Part shown: positions 1,983 through 61,101 of the stretch, one piece after another
Layout: every line of letters starts with the position of its first letter
Numbering within the stretch: the stretch's first letter is position 1
Virus record (IMG/VR): IMGVR_UViG_3300037483_000425
Span: 12,686-76,685 of that record
Strand: one strand, 5' to 3'
Source: a virus
Taxonomy: Duplodnaviria > Caudoviricetes
DNA length: 64,000 nucleotides
Program-made: the position numbers and the translations under genes
The notes under the pieces: generated by a model
Database searches by the model: none
What the model saw: only the letters and a program-made list of their open reading frames with translations
What the model was told of the DNA's origin: nothing

Positions 1983-2606
1983 GTGGGATTAAGGGTAAAA
2001 TATCTTCAATTTATTGAAAATTGTGTTGAAAAAGCGAATTTAGATGGAGACAACCTAACAATAGTTGAACTTGGAAATCAACATATGCGTAATTCTGATA
2101 ATATGTTATCTTTTTACAAAGAAAAAGGCATAAAAAAACCAAAAAGAACTGGCAAGGAATACTTCCAAGCCTGCGGATATGACCACACATCAATTGACTT
2201 AAATGGAAGTGACAAAGCTTTGCGAGAAGACCTCTCCAAAGAGATTAAGAATAAAAAACTATTAAATAATTTCGATGTTCTTACAAATTGCGGAACATCA
2301 GAACATGTCAAAAATCAATATGAATGCTTTAAGAATTGCCATAATTTATGTAATGAAAATTCTGTCATGATTCATATTGTGCCACAACTCGGTAGCTGGA
2401 AGAAACATGGCGATTTCTTTTATAGAAATCAATTTTTTGAAATACTAGCAAAATATTGCCATTATGAAATTATTGACAATACAGTTATTGGCAAACCTCC
2501 AACTGCACTTGTAAGCGTTGGCCTTAAAAAAACAAAAAACGCAGAATTTGTAAGCAAAGAAAAATTTCAAGAACTTTTTACAAAAAACGAATCAAAGTCC
2601 AGCTAA
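1983..2606 (+). CDS. Class I SAM-dependent methyltransferase-like protein
   Basis: IVELGNQ, SIDLNG and DVLTNCGTSEHV motifs; TACTTA 6 nt before the GTG. Confidence 0.6.
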   Translation: MGLRVKYLQFIENCVEKANLDGDNLTIVELGNQHMRNSDNMLSFYKEKGIKKPKRTGKEYFQACGYDHTSIDLNGSDKALREDLSKEIKNKKLLNNFDVLTNCGTSEHVKNQYECFKNCHNLCNENSVMIHIVPQLGSWKKHGDFFYRNQFFEILAKYCHYEIIDNTVIGKPPTALVSVGLKKTKNAEFVSKEKFQELFTKNESKSS

Positions 2607-2798
2607 TTTTGCCCAACGACTGCGACTGAGTTCTTTTTCTTTTTCATCGAACGTCATGTTGGCCAGCAGATCAAACGAATCTCGGTTTGTGGTTTGATAT
2701 TTCGACATTCCACCATTTACTTTCTTTGCAGCCAGTTTTTTTATGCTATCTTCTAGCATTTTAGTCCTCATTTCTATGCAAATGTTATCTAAATTCAT
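2592..2798 (-). CDS. Small protein ending in a copy of the scaffold C-terminal motif (SRWAKLAGL)
   Basis: Start reassigned to ATG 2798 (TATAAT 6 nt upstream); MNLDNI N-terminus; C-terminus matches scaffold 61102-63156 (SRWGELAGF). Confidence 0.7.
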   Translation of the reverse strand: MNLDNICIEMRTKMLEDSIKKLAAKKVNGGMSKYQTTNRDSFDLLANMTFDEKEKELSRSRWAKLAGL

Positions 2799-2805
2799 AT
2801 AAGCA

Positions 2806-3741
2806 TTATATCGCATTTTCTTCAAATGGTATCGGGATAAATATGCTACGAGGATTTTGAAGCGTTTCAAAGCCAGCGGCATTCTTATGACCGCCTCCGC
2901 CAAATAGTTTAGCAATAGCTGAAACATCAGTTTCCCCTTCAGATCGAAGAGAAACAATAGACTTTCCTGAATCTATAAACATAGACCACGCAATAGCAAT
3001 ATCAAACCCATGGATATTTGTTCTTAACAAATGGTGGCATAAATCTGACACGATAACAGGAGAAGAGTCATTAACTGACATAGCATTGTATTCGGATCCA
3101 TCTGGGGCCAGAATACGAACAGGAACAGCCTTCTTCGCCGCAATCTCAACCAACTTTTTCTTAAATCTAAGAATTGCTCTCCCTTCTCCCATAAAAGCTT
3201 GAAGCTGACTCTCAGAACCATCCAAGTCATTAATCCAGTCCAAATTTTCAAAAGACAGTTCCCAACTATCCATAGATGCGAGAAATTCTTTAGAATTATG
3301 GACATTCCATTTCCAAATATCCCGATCTTCGATGCACCTAATCATAAAAGGGGCTTCGTATCCTGGGTTCATGAAATCCCAAGCCATCCGCGCTCCAGAA
3401 CGACCCATATCAAAGACGTAATCACAATCAATTTTACCATCCAGATTTTCAACCGCAGTTTTATGATGATCTAAAATGAGCATCTTATTTGCTCTTCTGT
3501 TCAATTCATTGATAAAATTTGGGTCCTTGTAGGCGAAATCAACCATCAGAACATTTTTTCCATCTACTTCTGGTAACTTTTCTGAGCCATAGCTGGCAAA
3601 AAAGAACTTACAGTTGGGATTGTCCCTCCACACACACCAAGCTGCTCCCCATCCATCTGGACAATTAGAATGAGCGATCACATAATTTATTTCGTGAGGT
3701 TGCATGTCGCGCACCATATCATAGTCATTAATCAATGTCAA
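2806..3741 (-). CDS. DHH/DHHA1-family phosphoesterase
   Basis: HSNCPDG, LDHHKT, EDRDIW and GGGHKNAAGF motifs; exact start uncertain. Confidence 0.85.
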   Translation of the reverse strand: MTLINDYDMVRDMQPHEINYVIAHSNCPDGWGAAWCVWRDNPNCKFFFASYGSEKLPEVDGKNVLMVDFAYKDPNFINELNRRANKMLILDHHKTAVENLDGKIDCDYVFDMGRSGARMAWDFMNPGYEAPFMIRCIEDRDIWKWNVHNSKEFLASMDSWELSFENLDWINDLDGSESQLQAFMGEGRAILRFKKKLVEIAAKKAVPVRILAPDGSEYNAMSVNDSSPVIVSDLCHHLLRTNIHGFDIAIAWSMFIDSGKSIVSLRSEGETDVSAIAKLFGGGGHKNAAGFETLQNPRSIFIPIPFEENAI

Positions 3742-5890: not shown

Positions 5891-6280
5891 TTAACAAATT
5901 TTTGTTGTTTTTGAACTAAACACATCATTGAACAAGTGCGTGCTCCATCCTCGTTCGGCCGGTGTTCCCCTATCTGGTGTAACTTTAGTAAAAAACCCCT
6001 GAACTTTATCTTGAATTCCAAATGTCAAATCAGGATCTGTATTTCCATTAATTGGATCGTAATACTCAAGCGCGCCATCAATGTAAGAAATAATCACATT
6101 AGCATCTTCTTCCATTTTTACCTTCTTTTTGATGATTTTGTCTAATTCGTCAAAATCTTCTCCTTTGATCTCTTTAATGTGATCTCGGATAATAAGCGCC
6201 TGTTCTTTTGTCAAAGGCTTGTCATTATTTCTAATTTCAAAAAAGCCCTGTAACCAATATAAAAATTCTATATTATTCAT
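5891..6280 (-). CDS. Phage hypothetical protein (FxYWLQGxFE family), paralog of 52892-53296
   Basis: EFLYWLQGFFEI versus DFLHWLHGFYQM; both also have LTxxQ..I.DHI. Confidence 0.7.
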   Translation of the reverse strand: MNNIEFLYWLQGFFEIRNNDKPLTKEQALIIRDHIKEIKGEDFDELDKIIKKKVKMEEDANVIISYIDGALEYYDPINGNTDPDLTFGIQDKVQGFFTKVTPDRGTPAERGWSTHLFNDVFSSKTTKIC

Positions 6281-12861: not shown

Positions 12862-15800
12862 TTATGTAGGTATTTCCATGACCTCAGAAATTTTGGCAGA
12901 ATATCCTCTTTCATTAGAATTTACATATCCTAAGTAGCCTTTCAATTTGTCCATATTTGAATCATCCGTCCAATCCCACAAGCATACTCTTTCCTGTTTA
13001 CCTGATATTCCGCTTACAGTCATAATCAAAAAGGGCTTCCCATACTGTGTCTTTTTTACAATATAGTCCTCAAGAATAAACCATACTAACGCAGCCGGCG
13101 CATTCTCAGGGAATTCATTAATTGAAACATATCCCTTTTCTCTCAATTTGTTCTGCGCTTTCTTGGAAAGAATCAAATCTAAATCCATTTCTCCCATAAG
13201 CTCTTTGTAAATGGATAGCTTCTCTTGAATGCTCCAGTCTGAAGAATCTGTTTCAGCAGCTAAATTATCAAGCTTCTCACATTGCGTATCCCAATTATCT
13301 TTCTTAAGCCTCTTCTTCAAAAGCATCCAATTATCAATAATGGTTCGAAACATATGAGCATAATTGGAAAATAACTTTCCATCTCCAACGCAATTAAGGC
13401 TATCAAATGCTCCAATCTTAAGCAAAGCGGAAACATTCCTTTTATTGCACTTGCTGTGCTTAAAATTCCCTTCATCGTCCCATAAAAAGTCATAGATTGA
13501 TGAATACGGTCTTTTTGACTCAATCTCTGCAACCGCTGTTTTCCCTGCGCCTTTACACGAGATAAAGGAAGGCATGAACTTTTTGGAATTATCAACAACG
13601 GTCCAGTGATCCGTTGCCTTATTAATATCAATATTTGCAATATCATATCCAAAACCTTTTAGCTCAGATATGGCTTTCGCTTTTTCGTCCGGATTTCCGA
13701 GCTGAGTTTCAACATAAGCACAGAGCCATTCCGGCTCATAATAAGTCAAAAGCCATGCGCAGAGATAAGAGTTAATGGCATAAGAAACGGCGTGAGAATT
13801 GCTAACGCTAATTCCATTTGCATAAAAAGAGTGATCAGGATGATCAACTTCCAGATCATAAGTTTCTCCATGCCCAATAGTCTCAACTTTTTGAATTTTG
13901 TCGTATAAGGCATCAGATATAACTATACTCATGCCATTGTTTATGATGGCTTTTAGCGGGACCATACCATTTTTTGTTTGGATTTTATGATCCAAAGTAC
14001 AAATAAGAGTCTTCCCACTTTCTGTTGTTATTTTTACTAATTTCTTTTTTCCATTACAAATCCGATCTTTCACTTGAACCCACCCATTAATGCTATTTAC
14101 AAAATCTCCAATATTTACATCTTTAATTTTCGTATTTCCGATCCCTTTTACTTCAACAATTGTATTTTCCCACAAACACTTATTGAACGAATATTTTGCA
14201 AAAGACTTAATGTTTTCATACAAGGATTCTGCCAGACTTTTTGATATGCCATTATTTAAAGCCCCTTCAATAAATGCTTTTTCTAATTCAAGAGCTTTCA
14301 TGTATAAAGGCGTCCCAGGTTCTGGTTTTTTTGACACCACTTTTCTCAAAGTGTCACAATCGTCTAATGGTAATCCTCCAACCACATTGCCCAATTTCAT
14401 TGCTTGTTCCTGAAAAACAAGATAACCATAAGTTTCTTCCAAGACTTCCTTGATTAAAGGATGAGGGTATTTTATTTTGCTTGGGTCCTGTTTCGCTTTA
14501 GAATATTTCCGATGGACATGTGCCTCCATGGGGCCAGGACGATATACCGACGTAAGCGCGGCAATATCGATAATATTTCTCGGCTTGGCTTCCATAAAGA
14601 ATCTTTGCGTATCTCTTTGCGAACACTGAAAAATACCAGCAAAATTTCCTGCGCGGTAAACATGTTCGTACACATGTTGATCATCCAAATCAATAACATT
14701 TGGATGAAGATTAGAATCATACCATTTTTTAATGTCTTCAAATTCTGGATTTTTTATATTATGGTGACGCTCAAGAATAAGAGCAATGCACTGCTCAATA
14801 ATTTTCAATGTTTCTAAACCAAGAAGATCATACTTTACCCACCCCAGAGGCTCTAAATAATCTTTCGTCCAAGGTGTCTGTTTGACATTTTTAGACAAAA
14901 TTGTAGGCATTCTTTCAAAAATATTCTCTGAAAGAATAATCCCACCAGCATGCCTGCTAATTGCTTTTTGTTCTCCTGTCAATTCTAGAATATGCTCTCC
15001 AACATTAGGGTATTTCTCAATAAATTCTCTAAACCTCAAAGAATACTTCATCGCATTATCATAATCAATTGACACCTTTTCAAGATCGTCTTTTTTTGAC
15101 CCTGCAATTATCTCTTTGTCTACATTTTTAATCGCATTATTAGCTTCAACAAACTCAATTCCATAAAATTTAGCAAGATCCTTGGTCAAGCTCTTCAAAC
15201 TTAAAGAATTGATGTTTGAAATTGCGATTACATTTTCATCACCAAATTCTTTCATTAAGAGTTTTCTTAATAAGTCTCGATCAGAAAAGTCGCTGTCAAT
15301 ATCAGGAAGTTCGGACCTATCTTTGCTTAAAAATCTTGAAAAAAGCAAATCATATTTTAAAGGATCAATTCCTGTAATGTCAAGAACATAACATAATAAC
15401 GAAGCGCTAGCAGACCCTCTGCCGAATCCAACAAGCATATGCTTATGGGCAAGATCTGTAATCGCTTTCATTGTAAGAAAATACTTTGCAAAATCTTTCT
15501 CTTTAATGACTTGCAATTCTTCATTAAGTCGAACAATGTAATCAAGCTGATTGTCTAAACCTTTTGCTTCCAATCCTTCTTTCGCCATCTTCGCCAATGC
15601 TTGCATTGGCTTGAGACCCTCCGGAACCGTATACGAAGGTAACTTAACCTTTCTGTCAGGCTCAATGTCTTCAATCATATCATGCGCAATATCGTAAGAC
15701 CTTTCAATAGCTTCGCAAACAATATCGTCTTCATAAAAGTCATATTTGGGCTTATGCTCCAAATATTCATCCCACATTTGATCGGCATTCTTTGGATATA

Positions 15801-52670: not shown

Positions 52671-52895
52671 ATGTTTAACAATATATTATCAAAAGAAGAA
52701 GTAGAAAAAAGATTTCCTAAAGGCTCATCTGTAGAAATTTTAGGAACAGATCGCCTTGGGATTGTTGTCTCGGAAGCAAAAGTTTATCACCCCCTAAAAC
52801 AATGCGGCTATCCAAAATGCGATTGTAAAACAATCAGCGAATTAGACAAAGAAAAACAATCAATTATGGTTCCATATGATATAATGAATTTATGA
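52671..52895 (+). CDS. Small hypothetical protein
   Basis: Start reassigned to ATG 52671 (TATACT 6 nt upstream); coupled to the next gene. Confidence 0.6.
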   Translation: MFNNILSKEEVEKRFPKGSSVEILGTDRLGIVVSEAKVYHPLKQCGYPKCDCKTISELDKEKQSIMVPYDIMNL

Positions 52896-54616: not shown

Positions 54617-55333
54617 CTATTTGTCACCTTTGGTAATGTTTTCATTCTCCCATAAAGGTTGAGTATTCAAATAATGAAAACATTTCTTTTGTTGTTCCGG
54701 ATCAGATAAATCGAATTTAGAACAAGGGCAAATATGATCTATGCACCATCCTCCCCTTCCATAATTCTCCCAACTCATTCCATATTGAAATTTAGACTCT
54801 AAATATATCTTATATTCCTCAATAGAACACCCAAGAAGACTAAGCGTTTTTTTAGATTTGCATTTTCCATTCAAAGCATCATATATCCTTTTTCTACAAT
54901 TTTGAAGAATACGATATCCTACATCTTCTTTCCTTCTTTTTGCCCTAACCACTCTTGCACGTTCTCTTAGTTTATCCTTATTTTTTTCCCTATATTTTCT
55001 CTGATACTCAGCCAATTTTTCAGCATTTTCTTGAGCGTATTTCTTTTTTTTAAAGGCAATTAATTCTTTGTTTTTTTCTCGATATATTTTTCCGCGTTCT
55101 TTTATCTTTTCTTTGTTTGCCTCAGCATATTTTTTAACGCATTTGAGGATATTTTTTTTATTTTTTTCATAATATTTTTTTTGATATTTTCTAATTTTAT
55201 TCCTGTTCTTCAAGTATCTATTTGATTTTTTGTCTTCAAAACAAACTTTGCACTCAGAACGATATTTTTGACTGTCTTTTCTAAAATAGAATTCAGAAAG
55301 TTCTTTTTCGGAGTTACATGTTTTACATATCAT
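54617..55333 (-). CDS. HNH-type homing endonuclease-like protein
   Basis: N-terminal CxxC..CxxC, KEK-rich linker, WENYG..WCIDHICPC..HY.NTQPLW; start moved to ATG 55333. Confidence 0.8.
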   Translation of the reverse strand: MICKTCNSEKELSEFYFRKDSQKYRSECKVCFEDKKSNRYLKNRNKIRKYQKKYYEKNKKNILKCVKKYAEANKEKIKERGKIYREKNKELIAFKKKKYAQENAEKLAEYQRKYREKNKDKLRERARVVRAKRRKEDVGYRILQNCRKRIYDALNGKCKSKKTLSLLGCSIEEYKIYLESKFQYGMSWENYGRGGWCIDHICPCSKFDLSDPEQQKKCFHYLNTQPLWENENITKGDK

Positions 55334-55368
55334 GAAAAAGTATATCAACTTTTTCTGGTACGATAAAA

Positions 55369-56550
55369 TTACCCTGCAACAATCATAAAACCATTAGGCA
55401 TCGGCACGCCACGTAATTGCCTCATAAGATTTTCAGACTTTGTAGCTTGCTGTTCAACCAAACTATCATATGTGAGATTCTCAAGCTGATCTCTCAACTG
55501 AGTCCTTAGTCTTTCTTTTTCTTCATATCCGCGAGTCAACAAATCGTCATAGTTCAATTGGACATCTGTGTTCGGAACAGGAATATTCCTTACTTTACCA
55601 CGAATATACCCAAGACGAATCATACACAATGCTAAAGTATATTCTCTAATCCATTGTTTCCCAACAGAATTGATTGTATTATAAGACAAATTATCATATG
55701 GAATATTAGATAGATTGGAGATTCCAAATATGGAATCATCAGCAGATCCGCTTAAGAATGCCTTATTATTAAAAGGATCGCCAGGAAATGAAACTCTAAC
55801 AAATAGCTTTCGAGGATTTCCTGAATCACGAATCGGAACTGGCATAATTCTTAGCTGTTGTCCAATAACTCGATAACTATAATTCGATCTCCTTACGCGC
55901 TGAGAAAGCTGCAATTGTCCTTGACGAAGCAAGTCTTCAAAGACAGGAAGAACATAAAAGATTGTCTCTGGCGTGAAACTTTCAAAATTGAATTCGTTAT
56001 TCAAAAAGTTGATAGCAGATGTGCTATCAAAGAAACGGAAAGCCACAGCCGGGCTAAAATGGAAAACTTCCGTTATTCGCATCCTTCCTTGAGATCCGGT
56101 CGGCTGCAAATCAAACAAAGGCGTTCCATTACCATCAACCAATTCTGTTACTAAATCATAATCTTGACGCCCCTTTTCCAAAGTGATCGATCCAGACAAT
56201 TGGTTCTGATAACCAGAATATGAAGCCTCTTGAGAATAAGGCTCGGCTTGGCGAATCAAAAACTCAAGAGTTTCTCTGGGATATAGATTTTGAACATTAG
56301 AGCCTGTACTTTGCCCTAATAAGGTTGCCATGTTTGAACGAGCCTGGAATTCATTAATGATGGCTCCCCAAACCAAAGTTGCCTCTTCAAAGGCATCCCA
56401 GATTGTTTTACTTGTCAACTCAACAGAAAGGACATCATCCCCCAACGCTCTCTTCACATAGTTTATAATACTATCTGCATCCGCCTGGAAGGTGGTGTCG
56501 CTGTCAAATATCCCAAATGCTGTTGGGTTCGTAACGTCAAGAAATCCCAT
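55369..56550 (-). CDS. Neck / head-tail adaptor protein (T4 gp13-like)
   Basis: LG..VLSVELT, WIREYTLAL...LG.IRGK, L.YDDLL..G. Confidence 0.8.
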   Translation of the reverse strand: MGFLDVTNPTAFGIFDSDTTFQADADSIINYVKRALGDDVLSVELTSKTIWDAFEEATLVWGAIINEFQARSNMATLLGQSTGSNVQNLYPRETLEFLIRQAEPYSQEASYSGYQNQLSGSITLEKGRQDYDLVTELVDGNGTPLFDLQPTGSQGRMRITEVFHFSPAVAFRFFDSTSAINFLNNEFNFESFTPETIFYVLPVFEDLLRQGQLQLSQRVRRSNYSYRVIGQQLRIMPVPIRDSGNPRKLFVRVSFPGDPFNNKAFLSGSADDSIFGISNLSNIPYDNLSYNTINSVGKQWIREYTLALCMIRLGYIRGKVRNIPVPNTDVQLNYDDLLTRGYEEKERLRTQLRDQLENLTYDSLVEQQATKSENLMRQLRGVPMPNGFMIVAG

Positions 56551-56606
56551 ATCTCTTGATAAATATGGGATTTAATCGGTTTTATTTTGTTTTCCAGAAA
56601 TCACTT

Positions 56607-57272
56607 TCAAATGACGGAATTTTTAAATCCCTCATGGATCTCCATGGATATTTTTATGCTTTGATTAATTACATTGATCGAATCTCCGCCTTTCTTTAGC
56701 CTAATAACGAATTTAATAAATTTTCCACTAAGAGGATTGCTTATCCAATTTCCGTCTTTGAAATCGCCTCGCTCATTATGTCTTCGAAGATTGAGTGCCG
56801 CACCATTACCGGCCCGAGCCTGGTTCCAATCTCCTTGATATTTAGGACCCCAAGGAACCGCATCATTTCGCAGCATACCCAAATCAGATATAATAATTTT
56901 ATAGATTCGATGTAAATCGCCTTTTGGAATCGCTTTTTCTATTTCATAAGTTGGAATTATAAGATATTGAAAATCTAATTCACTATCAAGATCATTAAAA
57001 ACATCTGGATCGAAACTTACTAATCGAGCATTTGTTTTGGTAAATTCTTTAGATCTACTAACCGTCCCATAATTGAAAAACAAATCATTTCCTTGAATGT
57101 TTGCCCATGCTCCTTGCCATAAATCTTTTGTTTTTACAGTCCCTGAATCATAAACCGGACCATATCCTCCGCCACCGATCAAATCATATTGTCTGCCCGT
57201 ACTATATGTCCGCTTGATTCCACCGACGAACAAATCGCTGCGCAACTTATTGAATATATTGTCTAATTCCAT
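56607..57272 (-). CDS. Stand-alone paralog of the MCP insertion domain
   Basis: Colinear blocks match MCP aa ~144-330 (TGRQYDLIG, LNLRRHNERGD, KFVIRLKKGG). Confidence 0.88.
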   Translation of the reverse strand: MELDNIFNKLRSDLFVGGIKRTYSTGRQYDLIGGGGYGPVYDSGTVKTKDLWQGAWANIQGNDLFFNYGTVSRSKEFTKTNARLVSFDPDVFNDLDSELDFQYLIIPTYEIEKAIPKGDLHRIYKIIISDLGMLRNDAVPWGPKYQGDWNQARAGNGAALNLRRHNERGDFKDGNWISNPLSGKFIKFVIRLKKGGDSINVINQSIKISMEIHEGFKNSVI

Positions 57273-57277
57273 ATTTT

Positions 57278-57286
57278 ATTATATCA
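57278..57286 (-). promoter_or_regulatory. Extended -10 promoter TGA-TATAAT, leaderless; representative of about 12 sites
   Basis: 5 nt before ATG 57272. Confidence 0.7.
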
Positions 57287-57291
57287 CATCA

Positions 57292-57609
57292 TCAATAAAA
57301 ATTTCTGTCAATTGGAGCGCAAAGAGAAACAAATCTTCCCATCCGCGAGTCCTTTGAAACATCTGAAACAACAAATACAGCATGTCTAAGACCAATGGCT
57401 TTTGCAATATATTCTCTATTTTTTGGAACCCTTGCAATCATAGTTTCTGCGTTTACCTTTCCTGATGCCACCAAAACAGCATCAGGTGTGCCATCCTTTT
57501 CTTTGTCATATATACACCATTCGGCATCTTGGTCTTTTCTCAAAACATCATTAAAATGAAGAGAAACGTCTTCATATAATTCATCGTCAATAATTTGATC
57601 TAATTTCAT
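57292..57609 (-). CDS. Small protein with MKLDQI tag and possible sheath-like motif
   Basis: PKNREYIAKAIG resembles sheath PSSDRFIGKAIG; TGA-TATAAT 6 nt upstream. Confidence 0.65.
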   Translation of the reverse strand: MKLDQIIDDELYEDVSLHFNDVLRKDQDAEWCIYDKEKDGTPDAVLVASGKVNAETMIARVPKNREYIAKAIGLRHAVFVVSDVSKDSRMGRFVSLCAPIDRNFY

Positions 57610-57616
57610 ATTTTCA

Positions 57617-58150
57617 TTATATCATATGGTCCCAGAATATCTCATCATCCTGATTGACAAACCTTATTTTATCAAAAGTCAATGACCCAAATGGGATTTC
57701 AATGTCGTCTGGGAGCTTTTCATTTTCACTATAATACAACGATATATGAGCTTTGAATTTGGGATAATCCGAAGGTGGCGCTCCGCACTTCTGGATCCCT
57801 TTATCAATCTTCTTATATGCTTTACCCAATTCCTTAGAATCAAGCATGACAACCAAAGCGTCTCCCAGTCTCTCTAATCCAACCGCTTTGCACTTAAATT
57901 TTCCTAACTCTAAAGAATTAAGAAATGGGATAATTTCATCCAAATGCCTTTCCCCTTTCCACCAACGAATTGTGCAATGCATCTCGTCCGGTGACAAAAC
58001 CTTTGCACCTTTAGGAATCTTCAATGATTTTCTGAATTTTAATATTTTATCAATCGATCTTTTATCAGGATAGGCTGCGATCATTGATGTCGGCTGATCA
58101 GAATCTATCTTCTCAAAAAGAATCCGCATATATTCTCTCAATAACAACAC
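57617..58150 (-). CDS. 2H phosphoesterase (LigT/Acb1-like fold)
   Basis: Two Hx(T/S) motifs (MHCTI, AHISL); MLLLREYMRILFE N-terminus; TATTTA 5 nt upstream. Confidence 0.8.
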   Translation of the reverse strand: MLLLREYMRILFEKIDSDQPTSMIAAYPDKRSIDKILKFRKSLKIPKGAKVLSPDEMHCTIRWWKGERHLDEIIPFLNSLELGKFKCKAVGLERLGDALVVMLDSKELGKAYKKIDKGIQKCGAPPSDYPKFKAHISLYYSENEKLPDDIEIPFGSLTFDKIRFVNQDDEIFWDHMI

Positions 58151-58174
58151 ATAGATAAATAGGCTTATTAATAC

Positions 58175-58480
58175 CTATCTTCCAAAAAGAAGCCTGAATG
58201 CTATAAAGTCAAGCTTCTTTGAACAATCAAATGGTAGCGATAATGCGATTTCATTAGAACAAATAACTACCATTTCTTCCTCCGGAGTAAGTCCACAATA
58301 AGCCTTTAAGTCTTGTAATCTGTCCCATGAAAAGAACTTAAGCTTTGATTCAACCTGTCCTGTCGAGTGCCAATAGTAATAATACATAGAACCATTTTCG
58401 TCTATGTAAATTGGAATATTCAATCCAAATTTGGAAAGCAATCTATTTCTAATTCTTCTACCTAATTTTTGTTTAGTCAT
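58175..58480 (-). CDS. Small protein containing an MCP P-domain segment
   Basis: QDLKAYCGLTPEEEMVVICSNEIALSL versus MCP QDLNAFHSLDAEVELTKILSEQVALDI (11/27 identical); start ATG 58480 with GAGG SD. Confidence 0.7.
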   Translation of the reverse strand: MTKQKLGRRIRNRLLSKFGLNIPIYIDENGSMYYYYWHSTGQVESKLKFFSWDRLQDLKAYCGLTPEEEMVVICSNEIALSLPFDCSKKLDFIAFRLLFGR

Positions 58481-58512
58481 GTTTCCCCTCGGAATCATAG
58501 CTCTCTAACCAC

Positions 58513-59103
58513 TTAATGTAATGCTTGCCCCATTCTAGCCTCAAGTCCGCCATGATCTTCATGAAGCTTTTCAACAAGACTACGAATACTTCCACGCTCT
58601 AAAAGAATAGAGATTTCTTTCTCTAATGAGTCTATGTCCCCTAGTCTGCTCTTTAACTTGGTTGTTATCTCCATTTGAAGATCAGGCAACCCTGTTGCTT
58701 GCAATGTCAACATATATTTGGGCGTGTTTTTGTGGGCAAAGCGAAACCAAAACAATACATTAATATTTTAGATGTCACAATTCTAAAAGAGTTTATTTCA
58801 TGCCAAGGAAGGGTGTGGCGACCATATTTCTCATGAATATGAACAGGATAGCACTTGAAATTATTGATCTTTTCATGCTCAAAAATTTCTATCAGGCACA
58901 TAAATGATATTTCTCACATATTTTAAGTCAAAAGGGGAAGCATTGCTTCCCTTTTCTTTCATTAGCTCGCTTACAAGCACATTCCTTACAAACATAACGA
59001 TATCCTCCATTAGATTTGGTATCTTTCCTCCAATGATATTCTGTAAGATACTTGTTGTTTTACTACACGACCTGCATACTTGTTGCACCCTATTTTCTTC
59101 CAT
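58513..59103 (-). pseudogene. Apparently frameshifted/decayed gene region beginning with a split zinc ribbon
   Basis: TATAAT-N7-ATG start; CRSC in one frame and YHWRKD..YVCKEC in another; protein-like segments then alternate between frames. Confidence 0.4.
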
Positions 59104-59138
59104 AAAAATAATTATACAATATTTTATGCATAATATAC

Positions 59139-59169
59139 AAAAAAAAGGGAAGCTCTAATAGAGCTTCCC
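59139..59169 (-). terminator. Intrinsic terminator after the MCP gene
   Basis: GGGAAGCTCT-N3-AGAGCTTCCC followed by T8 on the minus strand. Confidence 0.85.
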
Positions 59170-59193
59170 CCTTTGTAAAATCTAATGTTTAGA

Positions 59194-61071
59194 TTAGATT
59201 ACGTTTAGATCAATGACCGTAACGGTGCCGTAAAAGTCGCTTCTGACCATTTTCTTGCCATAACGTGTCATGACGCCTTTACGAGGAGTAAAATCTTCCT
59301 GAGCAAAGATTGTTGGAGTAACAATCAATGGTACATACGGAGCGTACACATATCCAGTCTCAAGGTAGTTTCCGCCCTTGAATCCAACAAGGATCTTGTT
59401 ACGTGGGAAGTATGGGTCTTTGTAGACCGTCCAACGATTAGCCACGGTGCCGACGTTTTCTGCGCCGACTGCGAATGGCGTGGAGACCTGGCCGTTTCCG
59501 TCAATCTTGTAAGAGGTCTTGTAGAAAGCACTCTGTTCAAGGATTGTGGCAACGTCTGGACCGACAACAAGGAAGTTGGCAGATCCACGTAGGGTCTTCT
59601 TATGAATCTCATTAGAGACATCAGTGATGGTCTCAATAAGGGTTTCATACCATTCACGAACTGTGCCCGTGAATTGTGGACCAGTTGACAGCGTGCTAGC
59701 AAGCTGCACTTCATTACCAGTTTGCTTATTGACAAACTTACCAGGAGCACGGCTCCAGTAGTAGTTTGCACCATTCGCCTCGGTAAGAAGGTCATTAAGA
59801 ACCTCTCGGTCGATATCCAGAGCAACCTGCTCAGAAAGGATCTTGGTAAGCTCAACCTCAGCGTCAAGGCTGTGGAAGGCATTCAAGTCCTGAGCAAGCT
59901 CAGGGGACCAACGTGCTCTCAACTTACGTGTACTAGCAACGACGCTGATTTGCTCAATCTTGATATCAATCTCAGGGATTGCCGGAGATGGAGCATCGAT
60001 CGCGAAATCAGATTCGAATGCTGGAATGGTAAGAGTATCACCGTCTGTTCCGCCAACGTTCAAGGTGTCAGAAACCGCAGCAGATACGTGAATATCGGCA
60101 GTGGTTACACCAGGAACTGGTACGGTTCCGCCATTAGAAAGACGGATAACAAACTTAACGTGATCTCCACCAATCGCATCAGGAGTAAAGGTAGATCCAT
60201 TCCAATCACCGCGCTCATTCTGGCGACGAAGGTTTAGAACACCACGTCCACCCTGATAGTTCTCACCCCAAGCAACAACATTGCCATTGGAACCGAAGTC
60301 AAGAAGAGCGATTTGCTTCACTGCTTGAACATCGCCTGTTGGCAATGCAGATTGAATTGCTGAGACAGGAACGAACAAGAATGAATAATCAAGAAGATTA
60401 GCTTCAAGGTCGCGCTGAATATCAGCATCAAACATGACCAACTTAGCATTTGAACCGGAGAAGTCAGTGTTAGCCGCGACCGTACCGGAAACGACGAACG
60501 CATTATTAGCACCAGTAAATGCACCAAGGTTATCATTAGAGCTTGAAAGGGTAAGGGATCCGGTATGAACCTTTGTAAATCCTGTACCAACAAGGTCGTA
60601 TTGTCCACCAGTAGCGAGAGAGCCAGAACGGACTCCAGCGCCAACTGGGTTGTTATAGATGGAATCGCCAGAGGTATAAACGGTATCGGTTCCATCACCG
60701 CCTACGTTATTACCGTATGTGTAATCCAAGTAGAATAGCAATCCTGCTGGAAGGCTCATTGGCTGAATCGAGACAAGCTCATTTGCTACCAATCCACCGA
60801 ATACTCGGCGTACGATAGGAAATGCGACATTGCTGAAACCGCGGACCTGACCAGACGAGGTAAGTGCTGCCCCACCAGTTGAGAGACTGCTAGATTCTCG
60901 CAAAATCTCTGCTGCTTGGTTCTCAAGCAATCGAGACATGTTTTCACGATCGTAGCCGGTAAGACCACGAAGCAATCCTGTTCTGTGCCATTTGTCGACA
61001 AGGCGCTTAGCCTCGTGTCCTAAGTGGCGACCCCTAATATCTTCAGTTAATTTATCAAGTGAAAAAGACAT
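59194..61071 (-). CDS. Major capsid protein (T4 gp23-like) with a large insertion domain
   Basis: FPIVRRV..L.ANELVSIQPMS.P.GL.FYLD, RKLRARWS.ELAQDL, YAPYVPL, F.P.KG.MTRYG. Confidence 0.95.
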   Translation of the reverse strand: MSFSLDKLTEDIRGRHLGHEAKRLVDKWHRTGLLRGLTGYDRENMSRLLENQAAEILRESSSLSTGGAALTSSGQVRGFSNVAFPIVRRVFGGLVANELVSIQPMSLPAGLLFYLDYTYGNNVGGDGTDTVYTSGDSIYNNPVGAGVRSGSLATGGQYDLVGTGFTKVHTGSLTLSSSNDNLGAFTGANNAFVVSGTVAANTDFSGSNAKLVMFDADIQRDLEANLLDYSFLFVPVSAIQSALPTGDVQAVKQIALLDFGSNGNVVAWGENYQGGRGVLNLRRQNERGDWNGSTFTPDAIGGDHVKFVIRLSNGGTVPVPGVTTADIHVSAAVSDTLNVGGTDGDTLTIPAFESDFAIDAPSPAIPEIDIKIEQISVVASTRKLRARWSPELAQDLNAFHSLDAEVELTKILSEQVALDIDREVLNDLLTEANGANYYWSRAPGKFVNKQTGNEVQLASTLSTGPQFTGTVREWYETLIETITDVSNEIHKKTLRGSANFLVVGPDVATILEQSAFYKTSYKIDGNGQVSTPFAVGAENVGTVANRWTVYKDPYFPRNKILVGFKGGNYLETGYVYAPYVPLIVTPTIFAQEDFTPRKGVMTRYGKKMVRSDFYGTVTVIDLNVI

Positions 61072-61101
61072 TCTTTTTTCTCCAATTCAAGAATAAGTAG
61101 T

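Follow-up and report, generated by a model that had tools for sequence, protein, structure and literature searches.

The stretch of DNA analysed here (64,000 nucleotides, referred to as the window) comprises bases 12686-76685 of a 76,685-base IMG/VR record, which CheckV estimates to be about 25% complete. Nearly all genes of the window are carried by the minus strand. They include the gene for a gp23-like major capsid protein (MCP), an accessory island that begins at the terminator-like hairpin behind this gene, and a gp13-like gene at which the island ends. The island measures 2.6 kb and contains six genes: ORFs of 74, 80 and 107 amino acids, a gene for an Acb1-like phosphodiesterase, an ORF of 105 amino acids, and P0001, the gene with which this work is concerned. 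P0001 lies 1.9 kb downstream of the MCP gene and directly upstream of gp13; its location downstream of the MCP terminator, claimed in an earlier note made from the sequence alone, could be verified from the hairpin of 15-bp stem and T run at 59174-59142. The features referred to below are as follows.

59194..61071, minus strand: gp23-like MCP, 625 amino acids (PF07068 at 2e-74; phrog_138)
60073..60621, minus strand: parent segment of P0001, MCP residues 151-333, comprising the end of linker 1 and the insertion (I) domain (from BLASTP and AF2 models)
59142..59174, minus strand: intrinsic-terminator-like hairpin, 15-bp stem plus T run, after the MCP stop; opens the island
57617..58150, minus strand: Acb1-like 2H phosphodiesterase, anti-CBASS family (PF23474 at 3.3e-10), with TATTTA at -11
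57292..57609, minus strand: 105-amino-acid ORF belonging to no known family, upstream neighbour of P0001, starting with MKLDQI and preceded by a box of the form TGATATAAT-N6-ATG
57278..57286, minus strand: TGATATAAT, extended -10-like box and putative leaderless promoter, 5 nt before the P0001 ATG
56607..57272, minus strand: P0001, 221-amino-acid stand-alone paralog of the MCP I domain (from the ORF, BLASTP and AF2)
57231..57272, minus strand: N-terminal 14 residues of P0001 (MELDNI...), not MCP-derived, with a helix predicted at residues 6-13
57168..57209, minus strand: P0001 residues 22-35, kept end of linker 1, T-G-x-Q-Y-D-L-x-G (from BLASTP)
56628..57167, minus strand: P0001 residues 36-215, globular I-domain fold, mostly beta (pLDDT about 90-98 in most blocks)
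55369..56550, minus strand: gp13-like neck or head-tail adaptor protein (phrog_211), closing the island, with TATTTA at -15

The insertion region of the window's MCP is common to more than 420 MCPs, 620-640 amino acids long, encoded on contigs of up to 375 kb, indicating that the phage belongs to a large clade of uncultured jumbo T4-like phages. The closest named relatives, Microcystis phage Mel-JY01, Flavobacterium phage immuto and Rhodothermus phage RM378, are all distant. Public sequencing runs containing window DNA are sediment and soil metagenomes; no RNA run is listed among them. Short contigs identical to parts of the 55300-61100 interval were found in sediment and soil metagenomes of several separate studies, indicating that the phage, or very close strains of it, is not confined to one sample. 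Among the contigs from four such runs, just the probable source contig extends across P0001; the identical short pieces cover other parts of the interval.

In related phages, the interval corresponding to the island spans 2.5-7.5 kb and contains mostly unshared genes, proteins with SIR2 domains among them (positions 15067-15783 in locus L004 and 2512-3225 in locus L005). The L005 island also has a papain-like peptidase and a Mom/GNAT-like ORF. Such variability in gene content identifies the island as a hyperplastic accessory region like those of T4-type phages (PMC2839356, PMC4122927). A PADLOC search with the island proteins gave no match. The Acb1-like protein (57617-58150) shows two H-x-T/S motifs and begins with MLLREYMRILFE, a leader resembling the T4 capsid-targeting sequences that are cleaved after L-x-E; its gene has the late-type TATTTA motif. 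Packaging of the protein into the head, as an anti-CBASS enzyme, is conceivable. On the far side of the island, the gp13-like protein has a 75% identical ortholog in L004, which carries PF26809. An HNH/endonuclease VII-like gene (54617-55348, minus strand) is wedged between gp13 and the next conserved gene; just 2 of 85 related loci have it, which makes a mobile homing endonuclease its probable identity. The portal gene of L004 contains an intein with an HNH domain.

Relationship of P0001 to the capsid insertion domain

The P0001 reading frame starts with an unambiguous ATG and has an in-frame stop one codon upstream. In a BLASTP comparison, residues 22-196 of P0001 align with MCP residues 151-315, with 66 identities in 176 positions (38%) and an E value of 2e-31. 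The short peptide matches from which the earlier note had deduced a stand-alone copy of the insertion domain are all present in this alignment, and the deduction holds: searches of Pfam and PHROG with P0001 yielded no match, and the alignment spans MCP residues 151-315 alone, so that the HK97-fold core (N-arm, P and A domains) by which gp23-type MCPs (PF07068) are recognised is missing from the protein. Its homology to the I domain is seen throughout the clade, with identities of 24-41% to 77 MCP domains.

Structure prediction gave a P0001 model with a pLDDT of 83.5 and a pTM of 0.78 (AF2, alignment of 79 sequences), in which residues 40-215 are folded and residues 1-35 unfolded. The model of the MCP is confident across the insertion domain (residues 166-335), and the order of strands and helices in this portion is that of P0001 residues 36-215. 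DSSP strings of the two models show a one-to-one correspondence of secondary-structure elements at an offset of about 128 residues, down to a shared last strand formed by residues 205-212 in P0001 and 327-333 in the MCP. As modelled, then, P0001 comprises the entire I domain, preceded by roughly the final 15 linker residues, and is free of the HK97 core. The model suggests that the retained linker end (residues 22-35) lacks order in the isolated protein (pLDDT below 50); Y29, D30, L31 and G35 within it occupy columns conserved in at least 90% of the MCPs.

In the searches made, the domain resembled no solved structure. Foldseek found nothing in the PDB at E 0.001 or better, a profile search of PDB sequences gave no match, and a wide search with VIA-align returned no clear fold, the best hit being an unrelated reductase (Z 3.8, rmsd 3.6 over 86 residues). 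In BFVD, a single unnamed viral protein of 523 amino acids was retrieved (E 1e-3, TM 0.36), and in the ESM Atlas, scores of 0.88 were obtained with unnamed viral clusters, to be taken as leads only.

A start of the form M-x-L-[DN]-[NQ]-[IV] is common to P0001 and six otherwise unrelated ORFs of the window, all on the minus strand (starts at 57272, 57609, 11601, 11411, 10147, 9520 and 2798). The codons differ among these starts, so conservation is at the peptide level. Similar starts, MKLQEI and MKLKKI, are found in island genes of relatives.

Over 179 aligned codons, P0001 and the MCP segment are 49.9% identical in nucleotide sequence, with pS at 0.72 (saturated) and pN at 0.435. In the L-N-L-R-R-x-N-E-R-G-D block, 25 of 33 nucleotides are identical and the codon differences are mostly synonymous. 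These figures bear out an observation of the earlier note, that synonymous sites have diverged while residues are conserved, and the dN/dS estimate it had called for came to about 0.26, as expected under purifying selection. In simulations of neutral decay, run until the MCP segment had fallen to 38% protein identity, the frame remained open in only 0.1% of cases (mean, 6 stops), and nucleotide identity at that point was still 64%. On the strength of its codons, P0001 is thus confirmed as a selected gene under purifying selection and not debris. Of the 'old, selected copy' proposed previously, the selection stands; the age is doubtful. Synonymous sites are saturated, but trees put the gene beside the window's own derived MCP subclade, on a branch at least four times the length of the MCP branches, as would fit a younger, accelerated duplicate, although the AU test discussed below does not reject an older origin (p 0.186).

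Among the 77 MCP domains, 25 columns from P0001 residue 26 to the end show conservation of 90% or more, and P0001 has the conserved residue in 21 of them. Many of the residues kept are polar or lie in loops (D88, D119, W141, G142, Q146, N161, L162, R163, R164, R168 and G169), and the W-G..Y-Q-G and L-N-L-R-R-x-N-x-R-G motifs of MCP I domains are both present. D88, D119, Q146, N161, R163 and R164 are also kept by a second solo copy, P0126 (see below), which has lost R168/G169 and part of the linker motif. At variable columns, P0001 agrees with the MCP consensus in just 48 of 158 cases (30%). Charged residues make up 25% of the protein, as against a median of 11.6% in MCP domains; the corresponding figures for A, G, S and T combined are 25% and 43.5%, and the pI is 8.9, compared with 4.7 for the domain of the window's own MCP. 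The composition of P0126 is shifted in the same way. Judging from these values, the make-up of P0001 has moved from that of a shell domain to a charged, basic, soluble type. The proposal that the protein is a faithful decoy of the capsid surface fits poorly with this make-up and with the 30% consensus match on the variable surface. Furthermore, P0001 is no closer to its own MCP (35% identity) than to the MCPs of relatives (up to 41%), and so shows no sign of co-evolution with a mimicked target.

Distribution of the free copy and putative promoter motifs upstream

A full HMMER scan of 1.84 billion cluster representatives produced eight matches. Six of them correspond to fragmentary or chimeric MCPs, and one, P0126 (240 amino acids), is a true second solo protein. 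Word-based searches of 5.8 billion proteins, using P0001 or a profile of the two solos, disclosed no solo proteins beyond these two. Likewise, no solo copy was detected by tblastn in phage GenBank, and no further one by a pattern scan of IMG/VR contigs with P0001 or by a scan of JGI metagenomes with the two-solo profile. The contig that encodes P0126 (L005) is 8.7 kb long, and the gene occupies the position that P0001 has in the window, immediately before gp13. Compared with the window, this contig is 90% identical in the C-terminal part of the MCP and 73% in gp13; the two solo proteins are only 31-34% identical to each other. A second copy of the I domain is absent from 81 relatives with related MCPs (80 IMG/VR loci and one Logan locus), including phages whose MCPs are 83-84% identical to that of the window. 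As far as these searches reach, the solo I-domain gene is very rare, sporadic and fast-evolving.

The TGnTATAAT box noticed previously ahead of P0001 is indeed present, 5 nt before the ATG, and recurs before other accessory genes. No Shine-Dalgarno site precedes the P0001 ATG. In the window, the same layout occurs at 57616-57624, 57278-57286, 291-299 and 2805-2812 on the minus strand and at 52877-52885 on the plus strand; in relatives, it is found with island genes at positions 5974 and 6260 of L005 and 6991 of L006. Both in the window and in close relatives, the boxes stand 5-7 nt before the ATG of small accessory genes, in no case accompanied by a Shine-Dalgarno sequence. When both strands of 2.36 Mb of related loci were scanned, 9 of 43 TGNTATAAT sites showed the box-then-ATG layout. 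A box in L005 precedes a gene of 178 amino acids whose stop lies 1 nt before the start of P0126, suggesting that the second solo gene is driven by the same type of box. From the spacing between box and ATG, the predicted transcription start falls on the A of the ATG or beside it, and the resulting mRNAs would be leaderless.

A different motif is associated with structural genes. TA-N-TTA (in the variants TATTTA, TACTTA and TAGTTA) is found in the 45 nt preceding 17 of the window's 57 minus-strand gene starts, where about 2 would be expected, a roughly eightfold excess. The carriers are mainly head, neck and tail genes (a scaffold-like gene, the MCP gene, gp13 and tail genes), together with the Acb1-like gene; examples are the starts at 61071, 63156, 56550, 58150, 52631 and 48285. 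The motif is placed either about 25-30 nt upstream of the start, in combination with a Shine-Dalgarno sequence, or at -11/-7 where no such sequence is present. It is a candidate late-promoter motif. The region upstream of P0001 does not contain it, which, together with the presence of the TGnTATAAT box, sets the gene apart from the structural genes in regulatory class. The early expression attributed to P0001 in the earlier note is a reasonable inference from this class, by analogy with T4. No terminator-like site was found on the minus strand from 58150 to 56550, however, so late read-through into P0001 from the TAnTTA-type start upstream is possible.

The arrangement calls to mind the PeSL cassettes in hyperplastic regions of T4-type phages, where small variable genes lying between core blocks have early-type promoters of their own and gene content is shuffled between close relatives (PMC2839356, PMC4122927). 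Like the genes of these cassettes, P0001 has a recurring sigma-70-type box, the putative promoter TGATATAAT, directly upstream. Unlike them, it has a -10-type box only, at leaderless spacing, and no adjacent stem-loop partner.

Possible functions of the free domain

The I domain of T4 gp23 and gp24, connected to the capsid protein core by long linkers that gain order only through the lattice, sits atop the adjacent subunit within its capsomer (PMC9546572). The native task of an I domain would therefore be to bind another MCP subunit in trans. The domain studied here resembles that of T4 in being an extra surface domain inserted via long linkers into a gp23-type HK97-fold MCP (PMC9546572). It differs in that no sequence or fold match to solved structures, T4 included, could be detected for the domain of this clade, and in that, in this phage, it is additionally encoded by a gene of its own.

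P0001 keeps the polar and loop positions and the linker end but has an otherwise altered surface, which we take to indicate continued use of the conserved binding face. We envisage that P0001 probably has a host-type (extended -10) promoter of its own, from which a leaderless mRNA is made apart from the late genes, and that the free protein would act through the trans-binding face of the I domain. It might bind unassembled capsid protein or substitute for the capsid domain toward a factor that recognises the conserved face. As docking sites within the assembled capsomer are all taken by tethered I domains, a free copy could compete only on unassembled MCP. The accessory island, the Acb1-like neighbour, the promoter class, the patchy distribution and the fast divergence point to a function in conflict. 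We therefore tentatively favour, with a probability of about 0.4, a role for P0001 as a trans-acting mimic or MCP binder serving counter-defence or competition, and not as a core part of the virion. Several observations weigh against this role: the conserved positions could serve the fold alone; P0126 has dispensed with R168/G169 and part of the linker motif; P0001 is 35% identical to its own MCP, against up to 41% for the MCPs of relatives; and the late-type start upstream, with no terminator intervening, means that P0001 may also be made late.

Prediction of a complex between the MCP and P0001 scored 0.33, compared with 0.00 for the best of three controls, and lends weak support to binding. 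The mark applied is reached by 58 of 80 solved complexes and by 2 of 110 mismatched pairs; among scores of 0.60 or less, it is reached by 7 of the 80 solved complexes and by both of the mismatched pairs that pass. Contact agreement between runs was at least 58% and the partner pLDDT at least 67. Custom alignments were used, and as the partner alignment consisted mostly of MCP domain rows, the positive score may merely echo the MCP-MCP contact of the lattice.

MCPs are frequent triggers of bacterial immunity (bioRxiv 10.64898/2026.01.04.697583). It is conceivable, if rather doubtful, that the free I-domain copy counters capsid-sensing immunity by masking newly made capsid protein or by occupying the sensor. 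The literature searched describes no phage gene that copies part of the phage's own capsid protein against immunity. To our knowledge, no defence system senses the MCP insertion domain.

The main rival, which we consider unlikely, is that P0001 is a non-essential decoration or cement protein on the shell exterior, made late or by read-through, in the manner of Hoc and Soc of T4. The latter are the products of small, dispensable genes found near head genes; they bind the shell surface, and their distribution among T4-like phages is patchy. P0001 differs from them in being MCP-derived and in having a non-structural upstream motif; the family and PDB searches brought out no relation in sequence or fold to Hoc (Ig-like) or Soc. 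A place on the shell would suit the position of the gene in the head-neck module, 1.9 kb past the MCP and next to gp13 with a terminator on neither side, its descent from a domain that binds the capsid surface in trans, and the retention of the linker motif and polar positions; the complex prediction (0.33, best control 0.00) is weak evidence in the same direction, with the same caveat of a lattice echo. It is at odds with an upstream motif of the accessory class in place of the TAnTTA of structural genes, and with the absence of the gene from phages whose MCPs are 83-84% identical. In addition, the solo proteins are only 31-34% identical, yet the MCP core to be bound is about 90% identical, and in the assembled capsomer the native docking sites are already filled.

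P0001 might alternatively modulate or poison assembly by capping the docking site of MCP monomers, either timing assembly of the phage's own capsids or hindering co-infecting relatives, a possibility also raised in the earlier note and one to which we assign a low probability. Docking of the I domain in trans, retention of contact-type conserved residues and a separate promoter class are all compatible with such an activity, as is the fast, sporadic evolution that a gene involved in conflict would show. A regulator of the phage's own assembly, however, would be expected in close relatives as well, and no precedent was found in the literature searched.

Origin of P0001 and other capsid-derived pieces

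In the tree of I domains, the two solo proteins group with the domains of four MCPs, those of L010, the window, L004 and L006, and this set is supported (SH-aLRT 98). P0001 keeps its place, with the same support of 98, when P0126 is removed; P0126 alone has the same neighbours, without support. A tree of MCP cores, rooted with an outgroup, shows the window's subclade to be derived and not basal. The solo branches measure 1.15 and 4.5 changes per column, compared with 0.28 for the window's MCP domain. P0001 is 35-41% identical to the domains of the window subclade and 24-35% to other MCP domains. An AU test did not reject a tree in which the solos lie outside 11 MCP rows that include the window subclade (p 0.186). 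The best reading of these data, not a secure one in view of the long branches, is a duplication inside the window's MCP subclade followed by at least fourfold faster evolution. P0001 itself is considered to be a working accessory gene, formed by duplication into the island of the insertion-domain segment alone of the lineage's own capsid gene.

The converse scenario, in which the solo represents an ancestral free decoration protein later captured by the capsid gene as its insertion domain, is very improbable. It could draw on the AU test, which retains an 11-row MCP clade devoid of solos, but maximum-likelihood trees place P0001 with the derived window subclade whether or not P0126 is included, this subclade is nested in the rooted core tree, identities are highest within it, and the domain is present in more than 420 MCPs as opposed to two solos. 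Equally remote is the view of P0001 as a decaying leftover of a partial duplication or a silent gene-conversion donor for the MCP: the gene is rare, its branch is very long and a homing-type HNH/endonuclease VII gene lies nearby, but 221 codons have stayed open through a 62% change in residues (against 0.1% of neutral simulations), dN/dS is about 0.26, the fold is confidently predicted, a second intact copy exists in P0126, and no nucleotide word beyond 10 nt, itself out of register, is common to P0001 and the MCP gene, where shuffled sequences average 9.7. A word of chance length provides neither a substrate for gene conversion nor a trace of it, and the suggestion that P0001 serves as a recombination donor for surface variation is not supported. 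The functionless-leftover reading is largely refuted by the coding evidence.

Retention of a capsid-gene duplicate has a parallel in the T4 vertex protein gp24, a paralog of gp23 kept by selection in the same genome. However, gp24 is a full-length HK97-fold shell protein, and P0001 is the insertion domain alone. A free domain might complement a vertex paralog devoid of the I domain; no second gp23-like gene was found in the present record or in five relatives up to 65% complete, all of which are incomplete genomes. Taken as a capsid-gene paralog that consists of the insertion domain alone and has been refashioned as a soluble protein, P0001 has no described counterpart in the literature searched. 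It represents a clean, selected case of a structural-protein domain freed from the shell and rebuilt in soluble form in a region of counter-defence genes. If P0001 binds capsid protein or a host sensor, self-mimicry of virion parts would be a new tactic; if it is a decoration protein, it would show that the capsid gene itself can give rise to such proteins. Whichever applies, the two copies known make domain-level gene birth visible in a giant-phage lineage, in a rare and datable instance.

By their MCP cores, L007-L009 cluster with the window (SH-aLRT 99), to which they are 88% identical in the C-terminal part. The insertion domains of these MCPs, only 54% identical to the window's, fall outside the window group in the domain tree. 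This mismatch suggests that the surface domain evolves much faster than the core or is exchanged between phages.

Within the island, the 107-amino-acid ORF (58175-58498, minus strand) has a likeness to MCP residues 394-420, where the spine helix begins, that is too weak to establish a further capsid-derived piece (11 of 27 identities and E 0.001, from one comparison). About 12 kb before the window, an ORF of 150 amino acids (L088 120-572, plus strand; G000:C1:120-572) constitutes a solo N-terminal MCP segment. It contains the most conserved N-terminal segment of the MCP, L-V-S-x-Q-P-M-S-L ... L-D-Y-T-Y-G. Counting P0001 and this ORF, at least two different pieces of the capsid protein are present as separate genes in the same phage, and P0001 may be part of a wider habit of making stand-alone pieces of virion proteins. 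The Gol segment of T4 gp23, involved in Lit/EF-Tu exclusion, is likewise a piece of MCP that matters outside the shell; P0001 derives from a different part of the MCP, and it is the 150-amino-acid ORF that corresponds to the Gol region.
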